The translations under genes and the position numbers were made by a program. The notes beneath the pieces are model-generated. The model had not been told where the DNA came from, ran no database searches, and saw only the letters and a list, made by a program, of their open reading frames with translations. A stretch of 64,000 nt of DNA from assembly GCA_046346885.1 (NCBI GenBank), contig JAXMHI010000002.1:216768-280767 (forward strand). The letters are read 5' to 3'. This DNA comes from a bacterium (GTDB lineage Bacteria; UBA10199; JADFYH01). Shown here piece after piece: positions 26,517 through 43,343 of this stretch (position 1 is its first letter; each line of letters begins with the position of its first letter).

Positions 26517-26810
26517 GTGCCTGCCCAACCCCCTAAATCCACCCGAGAAGAAGGTGCTGCCGCCACCGGTTATCCCCGAATCGAAAGACTCATCGATACG
26601 GAGGAGTTTGATCCCATTAATAAGAGCTTCGCCGCGGCTTATGGAGAATTGGAAAAAGTGGTCCATCAGAAAGCCGGTCTCGCCAAGGCGAAGCAGGCAA
26701 AAAAAGCCATGAAATCGTATGAACTTGTCATGGATTTGTTAAAAGAGCTTTTAAAACTGAAGTATCAGATGATGGAGGCGGTGAAACAGCAGGAAGGTCA
26801 AAAAAAGTAA
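26517..26810 (+). CDS. small helical protein upstream of the needle-like gene (position analogous to YscE-type needle co-chaperone; function not established)
   Basis: 97-aa ORF, GTG start with AAAGGAA 7 nt upstream. Lys/Glu-rich predicted helices, no motif recognised. Confidence 0.45.
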   Translation: MPAQPPKSTREEGAAATGYPRIERLIDTEEFDPINKSFAAAYGELEKVVHQKAGLAKAKQAKKAMKSYELVMDLLKELLKLKYQMMEAVKQQEGQKK

Positions 26811-26821
26811 TCTCCCTTGAA

Positions 26822-26850
26822 GCAACTTTCGGGAGTTCTTTTTGCGATAA
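26822..26850 (+). promoter_or_regulatory. sigma-28-geometry promoter candidate (site A)
   Basis: GCAACTT-N15-GCGATAA, 47 nt upstream of ATG 26898. Shares -35 and -10 elements at identical spacing with sites at 29029, 34871, 40138 and 42056. Confidence 0.45.
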
Positions 26851-26897
26851 TAGGGTTGGAGGCGCAGTTTTAAGAGCCCCTTTAGGAGGATAGTTTT

Positions 26898-27479
26898 ATG
26901 GCAGATACAGTGATTAACGATACTTCAGCCCCTCAAATTGATGCTCGTGAGTTCGCTCGATCGGGAGAACGGGGTGCCATCAGCACGGGGCCCGGTAAGT
27001 TTGCGCAGCTTGTCGATGGACTTTTACCCGTAGCCCAAACGGCCAACCAATTATGGGGAAAACCCGTGATTGCGGCGGCCATGACGGTTCTGCCCGGTAG
27101 CGGTGGTCAAATGGCCGGTGCTTCTTCCCCCATGGGAGGCGGCGTTTTTGGCAGCGGCGGTGGCGGTGTTTTCGGTCGTTCTTCCATCACCGGACCTGGC
27201 GGTAGCACTGGCGGCGGTGGCGGAGTTCCTTTCGGTCCTCCCCCGGCTCCCCCGAGTGTGGGTGGCGGTTCTTCTGTGTCTTCCGCAGGCGGCATCCCCG
27301 GCATGGGGGGCGGCGCGGATTATCAGACCCAATTGGACAGCATGTTCAATAACAACATGATGTTCCTCATGTTGCAGACGAAAGTGCAGAACATGAGCCA
27401 ACAGATCCAGCTGACCTCGAACACCATCAAGGCGAAGGACGACGCGATCGCCAACACGATCCGTAACTTCCGCAGCTGA
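26898..27479 (+). CDS. needle-subunit-like (SctF-like) protein with long N-terminal and Gly-rich extension
   Basis: C-terminus MFLMLQTKVQNMSQQIQLTSNTIKAKDDAIANTIRNFRS resembles PrgI/MxiH ...YRNAQSNTVKVFKDIDAAIIQNFR. Central GGGVFGSGGGGVFG...GGSTGGGGGVPFGPPPAPP region. Good RBS (AGGAGG). Confidence 0.6.
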   Translation: MADTVINDTSAPQIDAREFARSGERGAISTGPGKFAQLVDGLLPVAQTANQLWGKPVIAAAMTVLPGSGGQMAGASSPMGGGVFGSGGGGVFGRSSITGPGGSTGGGGGVPFGPPPAPPSVGGGSSVSSAGGIPGMGGGADYQTQLDSMFNNNMMFLMLQTKVQNMSQQIQLTSNTIKAKDDAIANTIRNFRS

Positions 27480-27506
27480 TTTTTACTTAAGGTTAGAATT
27501 AAAAAA

Positions 27507-27537
27507 GAGGGTAGCAAATTTGCTACCCTTTTTTTTC
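27507..27537 (+). terminator. rho-independent terminator after the needle-like gene
   Basis: gagggtagca / tgctaccctt stem followed by T8. Confidence 0.75.
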
Positions 27538-41275: not shown

Positions 41276-41317
41276 TCCGAAGAAGGGCCCAAGGTGTGTT
41301 GGGAAGATTTCCCAAAA

Positions 41318-41351
41318 GCGGCTTAACCAAAAGGGGAAGCCGCTTTTTTTT
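41318..41351 (+). terminator. rho-independent terminator
   Basis: gcggctt / aagccgc stem with 12-nt loop followed by T8. Confidence 0.7.
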
Positions 41352-41455
41352 GGTTGTGCGGATAGGCTTCGCTCCTTTTCCAAAACCTCTTGCGACCCTC
41401 TGGGTTGAAGTGATAGCATAACACCTGTATATCACTCAGAATTCGGAGATTTTTC

Positions 41456-42097
41456 ATGGCCACACAAGACGCATTCGATCCCAATGCCGGTTTAACCGCC
41501 GAACAATTGGCGCAAGAGCGCAAGATCGAGGAAGAGGAACAGAAAAAAAATCCCGAACTTTGGAAAAAAAATAACGCCTGGCTCGAGCAAATGATCGGGC
41601 TCCTCAAGAACATCAAGCCAGAAGAAGTGGAGGCGATGAACGCGAAGTTCGAGAAGTTCATCGAGGGAGAGGTTACCTGGGCCGAGTTGCAGGGGGTCCC
41701 TCCCAAATTGCTTTTCGAAATCTCCGAGCACGGCTACCTGCAGTTTCAGCGTGGAAGATTCAAGGAAGCGGAAACCATCTTCAAGGGCCTTTCCACCCTC
41801 GACCATAAAAACGCCTATTATCACTCCGTATTGGGTGCCATTTACCAAAAACAAGACCGTTTGGGGGACGCCCTCGCCGAATACACCGTCGCGGTCGAAA
41901 TGAACCCCAAAGACATCGCTTCTTTCGTCAACCGGGGGGAGATTTATTATCGCTTAGGCGGCGTAGAGGAGCCGCTGGAAGACTTTAATGCGGCCATTGC
42001 CTTAGATCCCCAGGCTAAAAATCCCTGGGCAAACCGGGCGCGGTTCCTAAAAAACGCAATTCTTCAGGAGGAAGAAGCCGATAAGAATAGAAAATAG
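41456..42097 (+). CDS. T3SS class II chaperone (LcrH/SycD/CesD-type TPR) with N-terminal extension
   Basis: LQGVPPKLLFEISEHGYLQFQRGRFKEAETIFKGLSTLDHKNAYYHSVLGAIYQKQDRLGDALAEYTVAVEMNPKDIASFVNRGEIYYRLG matches the LcrH/SycD pattern. Confidence 0.75.
   Translation: MATQDAFDPNAGLTAEQLAQERKIEEEEQKKNPELWKKNNAWLEQMIGLLKNIKPEEVEAMNAKFEKFIEGEVTWAELQGVPPKLLFEISEHGYLQFQRGRFKEAETIFKGLSTLDHKNAYYHSVLGAIYQKQDRLGDALAEYTVAVEMNPKDIASFVNRGEIYYRLGGVEEPLEDFNAAIALDPQAKNPWANRARFLKNAILQEEEADKNRK
42056..42084 (+). promoter_or_regulatory. sigma-28-geometry promoter candidate (site E), inside the 3' end of the chaperone gene
   Basis: GCAATTC-N15-CCGATAA (preceding G gives GCCGATAA), 32 nt upstream of ATG 42117. Same register as sites A and B. 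Confidence 0.35.
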
Positions 42098-42116
42098 GCT
42101 TTAGGAGAAAGCGTGT

Positions 42117-43343
42117 ATGGCCACTAAAATTAACGATTCTTACATGACGAGCGCCCAGGCGGCGGCGAAAACTAACGTCGATCCGAAGATCGTCGACCAG
42201 GCGATGAAGAATTTGGGCGTCGACATCATCGCCAAGTTGGGCGAGGCCTATAATTCTTATCTCCGTACCGTTTCCGAAAGCCTGACCACGCTCACCTCCC
42301 GCCATTGGGAAAAGGACGTCAAATCGCTTGAGGGGCAGGTCATTTCTACGGGAGACGCCAAGGACCATTTCGCTAAACTCGATACCTCTAAATTGCAGGT
42401 TTATGAGTACCGACTGCCCGAAGGTTTCCTCACCGTCGATAAGCTCGATTCGGCTACCCGTTCCGGGCTTTTGACGAAACAGCAAGCCGACGCCATTAAA
42501 TTTTTCTTCGGTCTTTCTCCCCAATTTCATAAGGAGCGCGGCCAAGAAATGACGACCACCGCCTATAACCCTACCGGACAGGAAAGAGGGCAACAGGAGC
42601 AGGGCGGGGGGAATTCGGGCGGCGAGCAAGACGAGAATCAAGAGTTTCAAGAATGGGCCAACCAGATCGAGGGCGTGCAAGGAGGAGGCGGTTCTTCCGG
42701 CGCCGTTCCTTATTCCGCGGACGGGTCTTACGGGCCCGGCAACGGAGGCGGGCGTTCTTCGATCATGGGACCTGGAAGCTCTTCCGGAAATATCGGGGGA
42801 AGGCAGTCGATTTCGGGTCCCGGGGGACAAGTACCGGGAGGCCCCACGGGAGGTAGTAATCCGAGCGGAGGAGCCTTTCCCGCGCCTCCACCGCCGCCGC
42901 CACCGCCCGGAGGCGGGATGGGCTCGGACGGCACCAATTATCAAAACAAAATCGGCGTTCAGATGCAGACCGAGAACAATTATTTGAATTCCAATTTCAG
43001 CCCCGATGACCCTTATTACGGTTGGTTCCAATCCCTGTTCGGTTCCGAAAATTGGTACCGTAATTTCGCGGGCAATGCCTTGTCCGACTTGCAGAAGATC
43101 AAATCCCAAAAAGAAAAAATGCTCGCGGAGCTCGCCAATATCAACCCGAACACGGCCGAAGGCCAGATGAAGATCCAAGTCTTGCAGCAGAAGATCGGCG
43201 AGAACCAGCAAAGCGAGCGGCAGATTTACGACAGCATTTCTACCGCTCAAAAAGCCAACAACGAGCGAAAAGAATTGATTAAATCGATTTTAGATATGTT
43301 TTTCCAGACCAACTCGGCGATTATTCGCAATATCGGTAAATAA
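42117..43343 (+). CDS. putative T3SS-secreted axial/filament-like protein with Gly/Ser/Pro-rich centre and needle-like C-terminal helix
   Basis: 408 aa, no signal peptide. GGGNSGGEQ...GGGGSSG...GPGNGGG...PAPPPPPPPPGGG. C-terminus ERKELIKSILDMFFQTNSAIIRNIGK. Flanked by two LcrH-type chaperone genes. Confidence 0.55.
   Translation: MATKINDSYMTSAQAAAKTNVDPKIVDQAMKNLGVDIIAKLGEAYNSYLRTVSESLTTLTSRHWEKDVKSLEGQVISTGDAKDHFAKLDTSKLQVYEYRLPEGFLTVDKLDSATRSGLLTKQQADAIKFFFGLSPQFHKERGQEMTTTAYNPTGQERGQQEQGGGNSGGEQDENQEFQEWANQIEGVQGGGGSSGAVPYSADGSYGPGNGGGRSSIMGPGSSSGNIGGRQSISGPGGQVPGGPTGGSNPSGGAFPAPPPPPPPPGGGMGSDGTNYQNKIGVQMQTENNYLNSNFSPDDPYYGWFQSLFGSENWYRNFAGNALSDLQKIKSQKEKMLAELANINPNTAEGQMKIQVLQQKIGENQQSERQIYDSISTAQKANNERKELIKSILDMFFQTNSAIIRNIGK

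Follow-up and report, generated by a model that had tools for sequence, protein, structure and literature searches.

[quoted passage not shown] The cluster spans about 25 kb (18830-44090) of the 64-kb stretch of DNA analyzed here, hereafter the window. Its gene content and order support a genuine non-flagellar T3SS, unlike the classical injectisome families, with features of both types. Specifically, the locus probably represents a distinct family related to those Myxococcota T3SSs that lack a secretin, the frameshifts in the assembled sequence being assembly errors.

Gene content of the locus

The cluster opens with SctV, an FHA-TM-PEGA protein, a small helical protein, a Gly-rich needle-like protein, a CdsG-like TPR protein, and the lipoprotein SctJ. 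These are followed by a sigma-28-like factor, SctI-like and FliG-like proteins, FliH, the ATPase, FliJ, a FliK-like protein, FliM, FliN, FliO, and FliP/Q/R, with pairs of LcrH-type chaperones and substrates at the 3' end (Table 1). Every gene listed in the first-pass annotation was recovered on the + strand and in the same order from open reading frames and Pfam and NCBIfam matches. Two conserved parts of the locus, the FHA-TM-PEGA/TPR protein and a tail-anchored protein with two FHA domains, fall just outside the interval 26517-43343 to which the locus had been assigned.

Table 1. Features of the locus and its surroundings (L numbers are related loci; indels and stops are as assembled)
Feature	Position	Strand	Evidence
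secA	14837..17448	+	SecA_DEAD 449 bits (Pfam); 14 indels in C-terminal third
sctV (FHIPEP)	18830..20948	+	FHIPEP 612 bits; 5 indels at 19082-19250
Two-FHA protein, C-terminal membrane anchor	about 21680..22720	-	tblastn 79% identity to L001 orthologue
Secreted multi-TPR protein	22751..23995	-	Pfam TPR; signal-peptide-like N-terminus; conserved in relatives
SctD candidate, FHA-TM-PEGA/TPR	24156..26411	+	Yop-YscD_cpl 63 bits (cut-off 33.2); FHA and PEGA matches
Sigma-70-like promoter	26424..26452	+	TTGACG-17-TAAAAT, 5' of small helical gene; same motif in relatives
Small helical protein, SctE position (needle co-chaperone slot)	26517..26810	+	putative function, from position only
Sigma-28-type promoter	26824..26850	+	AACTTT-N15-CGATAA; orthologous site in 9 loci
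Gly-rich 193-aa protein, SctF candidate	26898..27479	+	needle-like C-terminus ...SNTIKAKDDAIANTIRNFRS
Terminator	27509-27537		conserved, 3' of SctF candidate
CdsG/SctG-like TPR protein (needle co-chaperone slot)	27569..28009	+	NCBIfam CdsG family E=9e-9
sctJ, lipoprotein inner-membrane ring protein	28044..28988	+	YscJ_FliF 86 bits; C-terminal TM helix
Sigma-28-type promoter	29031..29057	+	conserved in 9 loci
Two conserved proteins, about 166 aa (Gly-rich) and 124 aa	29083..29978	+	putative late substrates
TTGTTCTTTGAAAA element and sigma-54-type promoter TGGCATGTATGCTGCA	30102..30156	+	both conserved
Sigma-28-like (FliA/WhiG-type) factor	30220..31008	+	Sigma70_r2, r4; start from alignment with relatives
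SctI-like (inner-rod-like) protein	31040..31531	+	TIGR02497 E=8e-4
Terminator	31551-31597		strong, conserved, 3' of SctI-like gene
FliG-like protein, SctK position	31633..32589	+	FliG_M 31.8, FliG_C 30.3 bits, above Pfam gathering scores
FliH/SctL stator	32704..33384	+	FliH 75 bits; FliH and SctL models tie
T3SS ATPase (FliI/SctN)	33475..34851	+	FliI_clade2 642, SctN 627 bits, each over cut-off; Pfam 307 bits; PDB EscN 421, FliI 407 bits
SctO/FliJ stalk	34915..35424	+	YscO-like 69, FliJ 32 bits
FliK/SctP-like ruler candidate	35428..36303	+	Flg_hook 25.9 bits, under 29.8 cut-off; faint HpaP matches in relatives
FliM-type C-ring protein	36335..37309	+	FliM 55.5 bits; GGXG motif; lacks CheY-binding N-terminus
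fliN (SpoA domain)	37306..37722	+	6 indels; frameshift-aware alignment
fliO	37815..38164	+	2 indels, one in-frame stop
sctR/fliP	38142..38911	+	7 indels; orthologue: yscR 233, fliP 208 bits
sctS/fliQ	38916..39175	+	Bac_export_3 77 bits; 1 indel, 1 in-frame stop
sctT/fliR	39182..40028	+	5 indels; orthologue: SctT 156, FliR 141 bits
Sigma-28-type promoter	40140..40166	+	AACTTA-N15-CGATAA; conserved in L001, L002, L005, L008, L010
Putative secreted substrate/translocator-like protein	40251..41272	+	6 indels; one hydrophobic segment
LcrH/SycD-type (class II) chaperone	41456..42097	+	TIGR02552 74 bits; TPR matches
408-aa Gly/Pro-rich putative substrate	42117..43343	+	C-terminus ...NSAIIRNIGK
Second LcrH/SycD-type chaperone	43380..44090	+	TIGR02552 66 bits
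Sigma-54 enhancer-binding protein, N-terminal FHA	44087..45493	-	Sigma54_activat 236, FHA 63 bits; HTH_8
Ser/Thr protein kinase, TM helix, PEGA domains	45611..48127	-	Pkinase 128, PEGA 139 bits

Injectisome models outscore flagellar ones for SctV, SctJ, SctR, and SctT, neither kind of model is clearly preferred for the ATPase or SctS, and FliM, the FliG-like protein, and FliO are flagellar by score. SctV, whose N-terminus was reconstructed across assembly frameshifts, scores 611 bits with hrcV versus 529 bits with FlhA (NCBIfam), and its best PDB match is YscV (7alw; 460 bits versus 344 bits for FlhA). Of the two neighbors previously named for sctV, secA was confirmed and argJ was not found; among the relatives, an intact secA (882-917 aa) adjoins sctV in 15. 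The claim that the ring protein is a lipoprotein SctJ rather than FliF holds, with a signal peptide and lipobox (...LLFGGVGC) on a 314-aa protein that scores 133 bits with TIGR02544 versus 44 bits with FliF.

The cytoplasmic components are flagellum-style (FliG-like, FliM with GGXG, and FliN, plus FliH/ATPase/FliJ and a FliK/SctP-like protein). The gene at 36335..37309 had been labeled sctQ, but fliM_switch (66 bits) far exceeds SctQ (19 bits) and the label was rejected in favor of FliM; the intact FliN orthologue scores 83 bits with the SctQ C-terminus and 68 bits with FliN. Three independent checks uphold the FliG-like call: its Pfam scores exceed the gathering thresholds, a PDB-sequence profile search finds FliG (E=1.5e-5, ERPQT aligning to the EHPQT motif), and in a fold search the top 13 Foldseek matches of the AF2 model (pLDDT 80) are all FliG. 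The protein also matches YscK weakly (E=0.021). The FliG-like call of the first-pass annotation stands, but its weight as a flagellar hallmark was overstated: with sctI before it and sctL after it, the gene is where SctK would be expected. An equivalence of SctK and FliG has been proposed before (PMC4045390; bioRxiv 10.1101/2025.03.14.643159). FliO had likewise been regarded as normally restricted to flagella, but the two non-flagellar T3SSs of M. xanthus are both reported to have it (PMC12248157). The FliO orthologue here matches PF04347 and reaches 50.9 bits on FliO_TIGR, below the cut-off of 55.25.

The statement that a canonical SctD is missing is correct as worded, but a conserved, non-canonical candidate had been overlooked just upstream. 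This FHA-PEGA protein, directly 5' of the cluster in all relatives, has a cytoplasmic FHA domain, a single TM helix (residues 216-234), and a Pro-rich linker that leads to PEGA and TPR domains in the periplasm. It is a candidate SctD by virtue of the FHA domain, its topology, and where its gene lies, with a weak type_III_yscD match (E=0.0056) and no ring-building motifs in the periplasmic part. The two-FHA protein has an intact frame and a terminal hydrophobic helix, and its relatives carry two Yop-YscD_cpl/FHA domains.

The Gly-rich 193-aa protein is a needle-like candidate by its short C-terminal motif and gene position only. Its hhalign comparison with PrgI/MxiH/YscF gave E=0.002 and a probability of 14% over 38 columns ending at both C-termini, and no Pfam or PDB profile matched. 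The preceding small helical protein is 69-85% identical across 12 loci and has no family match, and the CdsG-like TPR protein also matches LcrH_SycD (44 bits) and SctY (E=2e-5). Eight of ten SctI-like orthologues match T3SS_basalb_I and two match FliE. Both LcrH/SycD-type chaperones were verified. The substrate by the first of them (297-347 aa in relatives) ends in ...TVIQAFRG (...TLIQSFRA in the L002 orthologue), and because it has a hydrophobic segment, the reported absence of hydrophobic translocators is uncertain. No Pfam or NCBIfam family matched the 408-aa putative substrate or the two proteins at 29083..29978, which are conserved in relatives.

In agreement with the first-pass annotation, genes for a secretin, SctU/FlhB, rod, hook, flagellin, or Mot were not detected when all larger open reading frames of the 64 kb were scanned with Pfam; no outer-membrane conduit gene is encoded near the locus. 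SctU was sought further by its NPTH motif and by tblastn and HMM searches, with no match in the window, although the latter two methods detect SctU in more distant loci, and it was not found in about 25 related loci either. To our knowledge, all T3SSs have SctU as a component of the gate and switch; either its gene sits elsewhere or the apparatus is unusual.

Relatives and the Myxococcota systems

Gene order is kept over about 25 kb in eight full and many partial loci with intact gate genes (50-95% amino acid identity). With 401 SctJ homologues and 349 FliG-like representative clusters, the family is, by sequence, conserved in uncultured deltaproteobacteria-like bacteria, the source of this locus among them, and widespread in uncultured MAGs, to which all named members sampled belong. 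The nearest outside group, by both SctV (52-54% identity) and SctR, is the Myxococcota T3SSs. Secretin-less, early-branching non-flagellar T3SSs have been described for Myxococcales (Abby and Rocha 2012, PMC3459982), and the "needleless" T3SS* of M. xanthus has been studied functionally (PMC12075869). The first-pass view that the locus mixes types and matches no well-described injectisome family therefore stands as to the mixture and the classical families, but the secretin-less kind was already known. The mixed state, read at first pass as intermediate or derived, may be either ancestral or derived.

The locus could itself be a member of this Myxo/T3SS* family, that is, a basal body with sorting platform that lacks a needle and does not secrete through a conduit of its own, but partners a Tad-like (Kil) pilus in the delivery of lytic effectors to prey bacteria. 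We consider this unlikely, although it is the strongest alternative. The absence of secretin and translocon (PMC3459982, PMC12075869), the presence of FliO, and the proximity of SctV and SctR agree with it, as do the neighborhood of FHA, Ser/Thr kinase, sigma-54 enhancer-binding, and PEGA proteins, which is typical of Myxococcota-like genomes, and the chaperone/~400-aa protein/chaperone module paralleled beside sctV in Myxococcota loci. However, absence of FliG and SctF and restriction to Cystobacterineae belong to the definition of the Myxo family (PMC3459982), whereas the present locus has a protein with the FliG fold and a candidate needle-like protein, and its family occurs in other, uncultured lineages. 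Moreover, the SctV identity is modest, the Myxococcota group carries sctU between sctT and sctV where the locus family has none, and no Tad or Kil genes occur in the 64 kb.

Frameshifts in the gate genes

About 46 indels are clustered in the fliN to fliR stretch, the sctV N-terminus, and secA. Frameshift-aware alignment places about 27 frameshifts at 37359-41218, breaking fliN, fliO, sctR, sctS, sctT, and the next gene as assembled, which explains 104-aa and 88-aa open reading frames without a Pfam match; intact orthologues in relatives match FliMN_C, FliO, FliP, FliQ, and FliR. If fliN-fliR and sctV were pseudogenes, the locus would be a decaying relic and the absence of secretin and SctU would be gene loss. 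As assembled, sctV, fliN, fliO, sctR, sctS, sctT, and the following gene together carry about 32 frameshifts as well as several in-frame stops, which might suggest such decay, but this reading is very improbable. Indels of the same kind strike the essential secA, indels of opposite sign lie only tens of bases apart, and residue identity between them is normal, equaling that of intact neighbor genes. The same alignment method called no frameshift in six neighboring genes, another metagenome contig, L089, is broken similarly in different genes, and the affected genes are intact in all relatives, whose loci have no secretin or SctU gene either. With indels in secA as well and unbroken genes in every relative, the clustered indels are almost certainly assembly errors rather than decay.

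The least credible alternative is that the locus serves a true flagellum as its export apparatus and switch complex, with the rod, hook, filament, and stator genes elsewhere in the genome: the FliG-, FliM-, FliN-, FliO-, FliH/I/J-, and FliK-like genes in flagellar operon order, the FliA-type sigma factor and FliA-like -10 elements, and the FliI_clade2 score of the ATPase fit it, but the SctJ lipoprotein, the injectisome-type SctV, SctR, and SctT, the SctI-like, CdsG-like, and LcrH-type proteins, a FliM without CheY-binding N-terminus, a FliG score of just 35 bits (equivalog cut-off 227), and the absence of flagellar axial or Mot genes from the 64 kb and every related locus contradict it.

Expression, assembly, and comparison with known systems

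A FliA-type sigma factor had been noted inside the cluster; it is present with WhiG and FliA_WhiG as its best NCBIfam models, but its score (139 bits) is under the equivalog cut-off of 189.6. What is new here is a conserved sigma-54 promoter before the sigma-28-like gene, its -24/-12 motif lying 72-87 nt upstream in 12 of 12 loci examined, and sigma-28-type promoters before three putative substrate operons. The AACTTT-N15-CGATAA motif occurs three times in 64 kb (0.09 expected), always on the + strand and in the cluster; the three sites precede exactly these operons, and each recurs at the orthologous position in related loci. Its likeness to the FliA -10 element suggests that the sigma-28-like factor reads this motif. 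Terminators mark off the transcription units. The FHA protein at 44087..45493 is a candidate activator of the sigma-54 promoter, and the adjacent kinase a candidate input for the FHA proteins.

Sequence and comparison show that, besides the flagellum-style cytoplasmic set, the apparatus has an inner-membrane gate of SctR/S/T/V with FliO as assembly factor, the SctJ lipoprotein ring, and the two single-pass FHA membrane proteins. The FliG-like protein may take the SctK role. It would touch the FliM/FliN ring, or pods, at the retained ERPQ/GGXG interface, and an FHA domain or the tail of SctJ would join it to the membrane ring. Exported proteins would include the needle-like protein, encoded between SctE-like and CdsG-like chaperone candidates, and two or three others that have LcrH-type chaperones as partners. 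Expression would be hierarchical: the sigma-54 promoter, probably activated by FHA-domain enhancer-binding proteins encoded nearby, which Ser/Thr kinases and PP2C would in turn control, would drive the sigma-28-like gene, whose product would then read the three substrate promoters. Without a dedicated secretin, any passage of substrates across the outer membrane may rely on another envelope machine, as in the Kil/Tad pilus cooperation proposed for the M. xanthus T3SS*.

The locus thus extends the known "needleless" Myxococcus-type systems and is not a wholly new machine. Its proposed three-promoter substrate control resembles that of late flagellar genes under FliA, and its order D-E-F-G-J...I-K-L-N-O-P-Q-(N)-(O)-R-S-T is collinear with the Ysc-type injectisome and also with the flagellar fliF-K/fliM-R operons.

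Gene content, assembly and distribution

The plus-strand gene order that the first-pass annotation had read from the sequence was confirmed by ORF lists and by Pfam and NCBIfam scans (see the table of features). The order D-E-F-G-J...I-K-L-N-O-P-Q-R-S-T is collinear with the established gene orders of the Ysc operons and of fliFGHIJK/fliMNOPQR. The FliG-like protein is identical to NCBI MAG entry U1F57_02640 and SctJ to U1F57_02615; the ATPase product has no exact database record, probably owing to a differing start codon. Each of the two LcrH/SycD-type chaperones adjoins a protein of 300-400 aa without family match. 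Conserved parts beyond the earlier list are the secA-sctV synteny, a tail-anchored protein with two FHA domains (2xFHA), a secreted multi-TPR protein and an FHA-TM-PEGA/TPR protein. The argJ gene that had been placed beside sctV was not found. A GST-domain gene, fused by the ORF finder with out-of-frame sequence into a 418-aa ORF, separates sctV from the 2xFHA gene in the window, and in the related contigs L001 and L002 sctV and the 2xFHA gene are directly adjacent.

The other large ORFs of the window are housekeeping, signalling or polysaccharide genes, and three large ORFs have little or no family assignment. Near the end of the window, where GC falls from ~53% to 33-38%, there is a polysaccharide or O-antigen type cluster, which may have been acquired horizontally.

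Features of the window, with positions in nucleotides
Feature	Position	Strand	Remarks
ORF, 676 aa	5-2035		no family
Part of the FHA-rich neighbourhood	12741-13502
secA, C-terminal third	16545-17382		14 frameshifts
sctV, N-terminus	19082-19250		5 frameshifts
GST-domain gene	20973-21650
FHA-domain protein	21680-22720		tail-anchored, 2xFHA
SctD candidate (FHA-TM-PEGA/TPR)	24156-26411	+
Helical protein, 97 aa	26517	+
Gly-rich needle-like protein, 193 aa	26898	+
TPR protein	27569	+
SctJ	true start 28044	+	signal peptide, lipobox, C-terminal TM helix
Two unknown proteins	after sctJ	+
Conserved element TTGTTCTTTGAAAA	30102-30115		~25-30 nt upstream of the sigma-54 promoter in all loci examined
Sigma-54-type element	30141-30156		upstream of the sigma-28-like gene
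FliA/WhiG-like sigma factor	true start 30220	+
SctI-like, FliG-like, FliH, ATPase, YscO/FliJ, FliK/SctP-like, FliM-type		+	next, in that order
fliN, fliO, sctR, sctS, sctT		+	next, in that order
The same five genes and the next gene	37359-41218		27 frameshifts (6, 2, 7, 1, 5, 6)
LcrH/SycD-type chaperones (two)		+	TIGR02552, 74 and 66 bits
Part of the FHA-rich neighbourhood	44087-48127		includes sigma-54 activator, 44087-45493
ORF, 609 aa	51200-53029		faint HEAT repeats
Sigma-54 activator with FHA domain	54281-55924
ORF, 912 aa	56104-58842		C-terminal LamG domain
Low-GC region	58000-64000		glycosyltransferases, Wzy-like polymerase, UDP-galactopyranose mutase

The FliN-like (104 aa) and FliO-like (88 aa) ORFs named in the first pass have no Pfam match as assembled, and sctR lies in pieces across three frames; fliN and fliO themselves were found when frameshift-aware protein-to-DNA alignment against intact orthologues was applied. 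In the relatives' loci FliN (FliMN_C), FliO (PF04347; TIGR03500 50.9 bits, NCBIfam cut-off 55), FliP, FliQ and FliR are all intact. Frameshifts counted in this way cluster in the gate genes, in sctV and in secA, whereas the ATPase, FliM, FliH, FliJ, FliK-like and FliG-like genes have none by the same procedure. Between these single-base indels the residue identity equals that of intact neighbours, several indels of opposite sign sit close together, and all relatives have an unbroken copy of the essential gene secA (882-917 aa). Pseudogenization of the gate genes is rejected, because indel clusters of the same kind occur in secA and none in the control genes. On these alignments, we conclude that the indels are to be read as patchy consensus errors of an unpolished MAG assembly and not as pseudogenes. 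Such patches can imitate pseudogenization of precisely the key membrane genes, and automated annotation of the window would call the T3SS gate genes pseudogenes. On a contig of a closer relative (JGI Ga0495568_00001102) the sigma factor and ATPase genes are split in pieces; thus, indel-type assembly errors are apparently frequent among this lineage's public contigs.

There are 22 close homologues of the FliG-like protein, and related loci were searched by the FliG-like gene with an 11-sequence alignment. On the homologues' contigs, gene content and order are conserved between sctV and the first chaperone, at 50-95% identity, in seven loci and in four more that are partial. The relatives' records are labelled "Deltaproteobacteria bacterium," "bacterium," "uncultured Pseudomonadota bacterium" or "Myxococcota bacterium." In GTDB the FliG-like gene is found in only seven species representatives; metagenomes hold far more, with 401 SctJ homologues, 78 sctV loci and, for the FliG-like profile, 349 representative clusters that match. 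A distant FliG-like member (ENA contig k141_1451207) lies in a short module of FliG-like, FliH, ATPase, YscO and HpaP-like genes bounded by a phage-type integrase. As this short module ends at an integrase, the system is split or mobile in some lineages.

Injectisome-like and flagellum-like components

The core set of non-flagellar T3SSs consists of SctC, J, N, Q, R, S, T, U and V (Abby & Rocha 2012). The SctJ lipoprotein ring, the SctN ATPase and the SctV/R/S/T gate are present, and the SctQ role would be covered by separate FliM-type and FliN-type genes. Each protein was scored with paired NCBIfam models, using intact orthologues for the gate proteins R/S/T, FliN and FliO, and the paired models place the core in between the injectisome and the flagellum (see the table of scores). 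Among solved structures, SctV is nearest to YscV (460 bits, vs 344 for FlhA), and the ATPase is as near to EscN as to FliI. SctJ matches Pfam YscJ_FliF at 86 bits; the sole protein of that family in the window is a 314-aa lipoprotein, and no FliF MS ring is present there.

Scores of core proteins against paired injectisome and flagellar NCBIfam models (bits)
Protein	Injectisome	Flagellar
SctV	611 (hrcV, truncated ORF)	529
SctJ	133 (TIGR02544, below equivalog cut-off 162)	44 (fliF cut-off 130)
SctR	233 (yscR, above cut-off)	208
SctT	156 (just below 163)	141
ATPase	627 (SctN, above cut-off)	642
SctS	94 (above cut-off)	101
FliN	83 (SctQ C-terminus)	68
FliM	19 (SctQ)	66

The TPR protein following the needle-like gene matches the chlamydial CdsG (SctG) family (E=9e-9). 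Among 10 SctI-like orthologues, T3SS_basalb_I is matched by eight (best E=0.014) and FliE by two, and TIGR02497 gives 19.2 bits (cut-off 23.45). The first pass saw no canonical SctD in the window. A candidate with SctD topology, the FHA-TM-PEGA/TPR protein, does lie immediately upstream of the cluster: it matches FHA/Yop-YscD_cpl at 63 bits, has one TM helix and occupies the correct gene position, but in its periplasmic part PEGA and TPR stand in place of ring-building motifs, and type_III_yscD matches only at E=0.0056.

The bacterial rotor protein FliG has three ARM-like domains, an EHPQR motif and a torque helix. The early FliG-like call is borne out, since both FliG_M and FliG_C exceed the Pfam gathering thresholds and both profile and fold searches return FliG; the score with TIGR00207 is 35 bits vs a cut-off of 227. 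When a profile of 11 members was searched against PDB sequences, the top matches were only FliG (E=1.5e-5). Furthermore, with an AlphaFold2 model (pLDDT 80) the best 13 Foldseek matches were FliG structures (probabilities 0.82-1.0), and the middle domain superposes on FliG at 1.7 A. In the sequence, ERPQT aligns to FliG's EHPQT motif. GGXG is kept in the FliM-type protein, which lacks the CheY-binding N-terminus. The FliG-like gene occupies the injectisome sctK position and has a weak YscK match (E=0.021). The equivalence of SctK and FliG was suggested previously (PMC4045390; bioRxiv 10.1101/2025.03.14.643159), so the idea itself is not new; what the family adds is a bridge at the level of sequence.

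The last 20 residues of the needle-like protein (SNTIKAKDDAIANTIRNFRS), with the C-terminal motif ...IRNFRS, resemble PrgI/MxiH. Aligned with hhalign, the needle-like and needle profiles share 38 columns reaching both C-termini (E=0.002, only 14% probability). None of 10 needle-like orthologues matches the Pfam needle models, and PDB searches with whole-length and C-terminal profiles returned no needle proteins. Its candidacy as SctF comes mostly from context, as the gene is flanked by those of the small helical and CdsG-like TPR proteins and has its own promoter and terminator. Similar C-terminal ends are found in two further proteins of the cluster, ...TVIQAFRG (...TLIQSFRA in the L002 orthologue) and ...AIIRNIGK.

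Domain scans of the 64 kb with Pfam and NCBIfam upheld the reported absence of secretin, FlhB/SctU, gatekeeper, rod, hook, flagellin and Mot genes among the ORFs. No Secretin domain is found in these ORFs or in the gene tables of related loci, and neither the 64 kb nor the related loci contain rod, hook, filament or MotA/B genes. For SctU, no ORF of the window has a Bac_export_2 match or an NPTH motif. Searches by tblastn, with an FlhB query, and by an HMM built from the SctU genes retrieved with it found none in the window or in ~25 family loci that together span 10 kb on either side of sctV or the FliG-like gene; the same searches do detect SctU in flagellar loci and in the group whose sctV products are 52-54% identical. 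The gene of 297-347 aa after sctT was rejected as a divergent SctU, being hydrophilic, with one hydrophobic segment and no NPTH.

This 52-54% sister group is a widespread Myxococcota T3SS with the order fliN-fliO-sctR-S-T-x-x-sctU-x-chaperone-~407 aa-chaperone-sctV, and, compared with it, the window family is marginally nearer to a flagellar FlhA and FliP. Three loci (L046, L075, L091) represent a very widespread Myxococcota T3SS family, separate from that of the window, with fliO and sctU; there the chaperone/~407-aa/chaperone module beside sctV is a counterpart to the pairs of substrate and chaperone genes that follow sctT in the window. In L046 and L075, sctV is followed by two very large genes (~900 and ~1500 aa).

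Conserved promoters and a putative regulatory cascade

Conserved promoters emerged when the upstream regions of relatives were compared. In each of the 12 loci examined, the sigma-28-like gene is preceded at a distance of 72-87 nt by a -24/-12 element, TGGCAY-N5-NTGCA, and the conserved TTGTTCTTTGAAAA element farther upstream could be an activator or IHF site. The sequence AACTT(T/A)-N15-CGATAA occurs three times in the 64 kb vs 0.09 expected, always on the plus strand and at sites kept at orthologous positions in relatives: upstream of the needle-like gene, of the two unknown genes after sctJ, and of the substrate/chaperone operon after sctT. Its -10 part equals the core of the FliA -10 consensus GCCGATAA. 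Terminators are conserved 3' of the needle-like and SctI-like genes. Scans of the window with the sigma-54 consensus TGGCAC-N5-TTGCA and with the FliA consensus TAAAG-N14-GCCGATAA gave no enrichment over shuffles. The sigma-54 and sigma-28-like promoter findings are new here.

Encoded nearby are a Stp1-type PP2C phosphatase, a Ser/Thr kinase carrying PEGA domains and two FHA-domain sigma-54 activators. These activators are among the five FHA-domain proteins of the neighbourhood. Such an unusually FHA-rich neighbourhood, together with the PEGA kinase and PP2C, suggests that the assembly of the system and its transcription are both under phospho-threonine control. In the proposed cascade, FHA/kinase signalling would act on the sigma-54 promoter, sigma-54 would drive the sigma-28-like factor, and the latter would in turn direct expression of the putative substrates.

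Comparison with known systems

That the injectisome arose from the flagellum has been concluded chiefly from a single unusual group, that of the Myxococcales. The family is a second such group, much more widespread and so far known only from uncultured bacteria. Flagellar traits (a recognizable FliG-like protein in the SctK slot, split FliM/FliN, FliO and a sigma-28-type late-gene circuit) stand in it alongside injectisome inventions (SctJ, SctI-like, CdsG-like and LcrH-type chaperones), and its sequences can be used to test SctK = FliG, SctQ = FliM+FliN and the order of gains and losses. We regard it as unlikely that the family is a surviving transitional non-flagellar T3SS, in which SctJ, SctI and LcrH-type chaperones, along with a needle-like subunit and an FHA-type precursor of SctD, would be combined with a flagellar FliG/FliM/FliN ring, FliO and FliA-style late-gene control, with neither secretin nor SctU/FlhB in the genome. 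Were this so, a living system would record the FliG-to-SctK and FliM/FliN-to-SctQ transitions, and no T3SS before it would be known to lack the switch protein. If SctU and a secretin truly are missing from the whole genome, the indispensability of SctU would be challenged, and one would have to ask what a T3SS does in a diderm envelope when it has no outer-membrane channel of its own.

Points in common with the chlamydial T3SS are FHA domains in proteins of the ring, which in the family are candidates and of which CdsD carries two, a TPR protein of CdsG type, a role of sigma-28 in late gene expression, which for the family is proposed, and a divergent SctK with FliG-clan similarity (bioRxiv 10.1101/2025.03.14.643159). 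Unlike the family locus, Chlamydiae have the secretin CdsC, CdsU, the canonical needle CdsF and translocators, in scattered loci and with no FliM-type SctQ.

Common to the family and the flagellum (fliFGHIJK/fliMNOPQR, FliA regulon) are a FliG-like protein with FliM and FliN (GGXG and EHPQR-like motifs), the FliH/I/J set, FliO, a protein resembling FliK, the operon order, the CGATAA -10 element and, as we infer here, a sigma-54 to sigma-28 cascade. The family differs in having SctJ for FliF and a FliM without the CheY-binding motif, in the absence from the locus of FlhB, rod, hook, filament, L/P rings and stators, and in core gate proteins that are nearer to injectisome than to flagellar homologues. 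With the Ysc injectisome (Yersinia virC/virB) it shares the collinear D-E-F-G-(H)-I-J-K-L and N-O-P-Q-R-S-T orders, a lipoprotein SctJ, LcrH/SycD-type chaperones and an SctV nearest to YscV among solved structures. Unlike Ysc, the family locus has no SctC, SctU, SctW, LcrV or YopB/D; it carries a FliG-like gene in the SctK slot, FliM and FliN for SctQ, and FliO. Its SctD candidate has PEGA and TPR where the Ysc SctD has ring-building motifs, and its regulation would involve sigma-54 and a sigma-28-like factor where Ysc uses an AraC-type regulator.

The Myxo T3SS, or T3SS* (mxan_2434-2464), the "needleless" system of M. xanthus, has been treated by Abby & Rocha in 2012, Thiery et al. in 2022 and Herrou et al. 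in 2025. Myxococcales T3SSs without secretin, SctF, translocon and FliG were described as the earliest-branching non-flagellar T3SSs (Abby & Rocha; PMC3459982). M. xanthus depends on T3SS* to lyse its prey, and the Kil Tad pilus recruits the system (PMC12075869, PMC10849154); FliO is found in both M. xanthus systems (PMC12248157). Like them, the family has no secretin and no recognized translocon in its loci; it shares the inner-membrane gate, ATPase complex, SctJ, an SctI-like protein, FliO and a deltaproteobacteria-like host. Both are conserved despite being "incomplete," and the system is therefore probably functional. By the description of the Myxo system, the family is set apart by a protein of FliG fold, a needle-like candidate, FliM-type and FliN proteins encoded by two genes, a sigma-28-like factor inside the cluster that has promoters of its own, E/G-type chaperone neighbours and a locus without sctU, although the 2012 profiles may have missed similar FliG/SctF genes in Myxococcus. 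It also occurs outside the cultured Cystobacterineae, with SctV identity to uncultured Myxococcota T3SSs, the closest group found outside it, of only 52-54%. The locus is real and conserved, and is best filed as a variant among the known secretin-less T3SSs.
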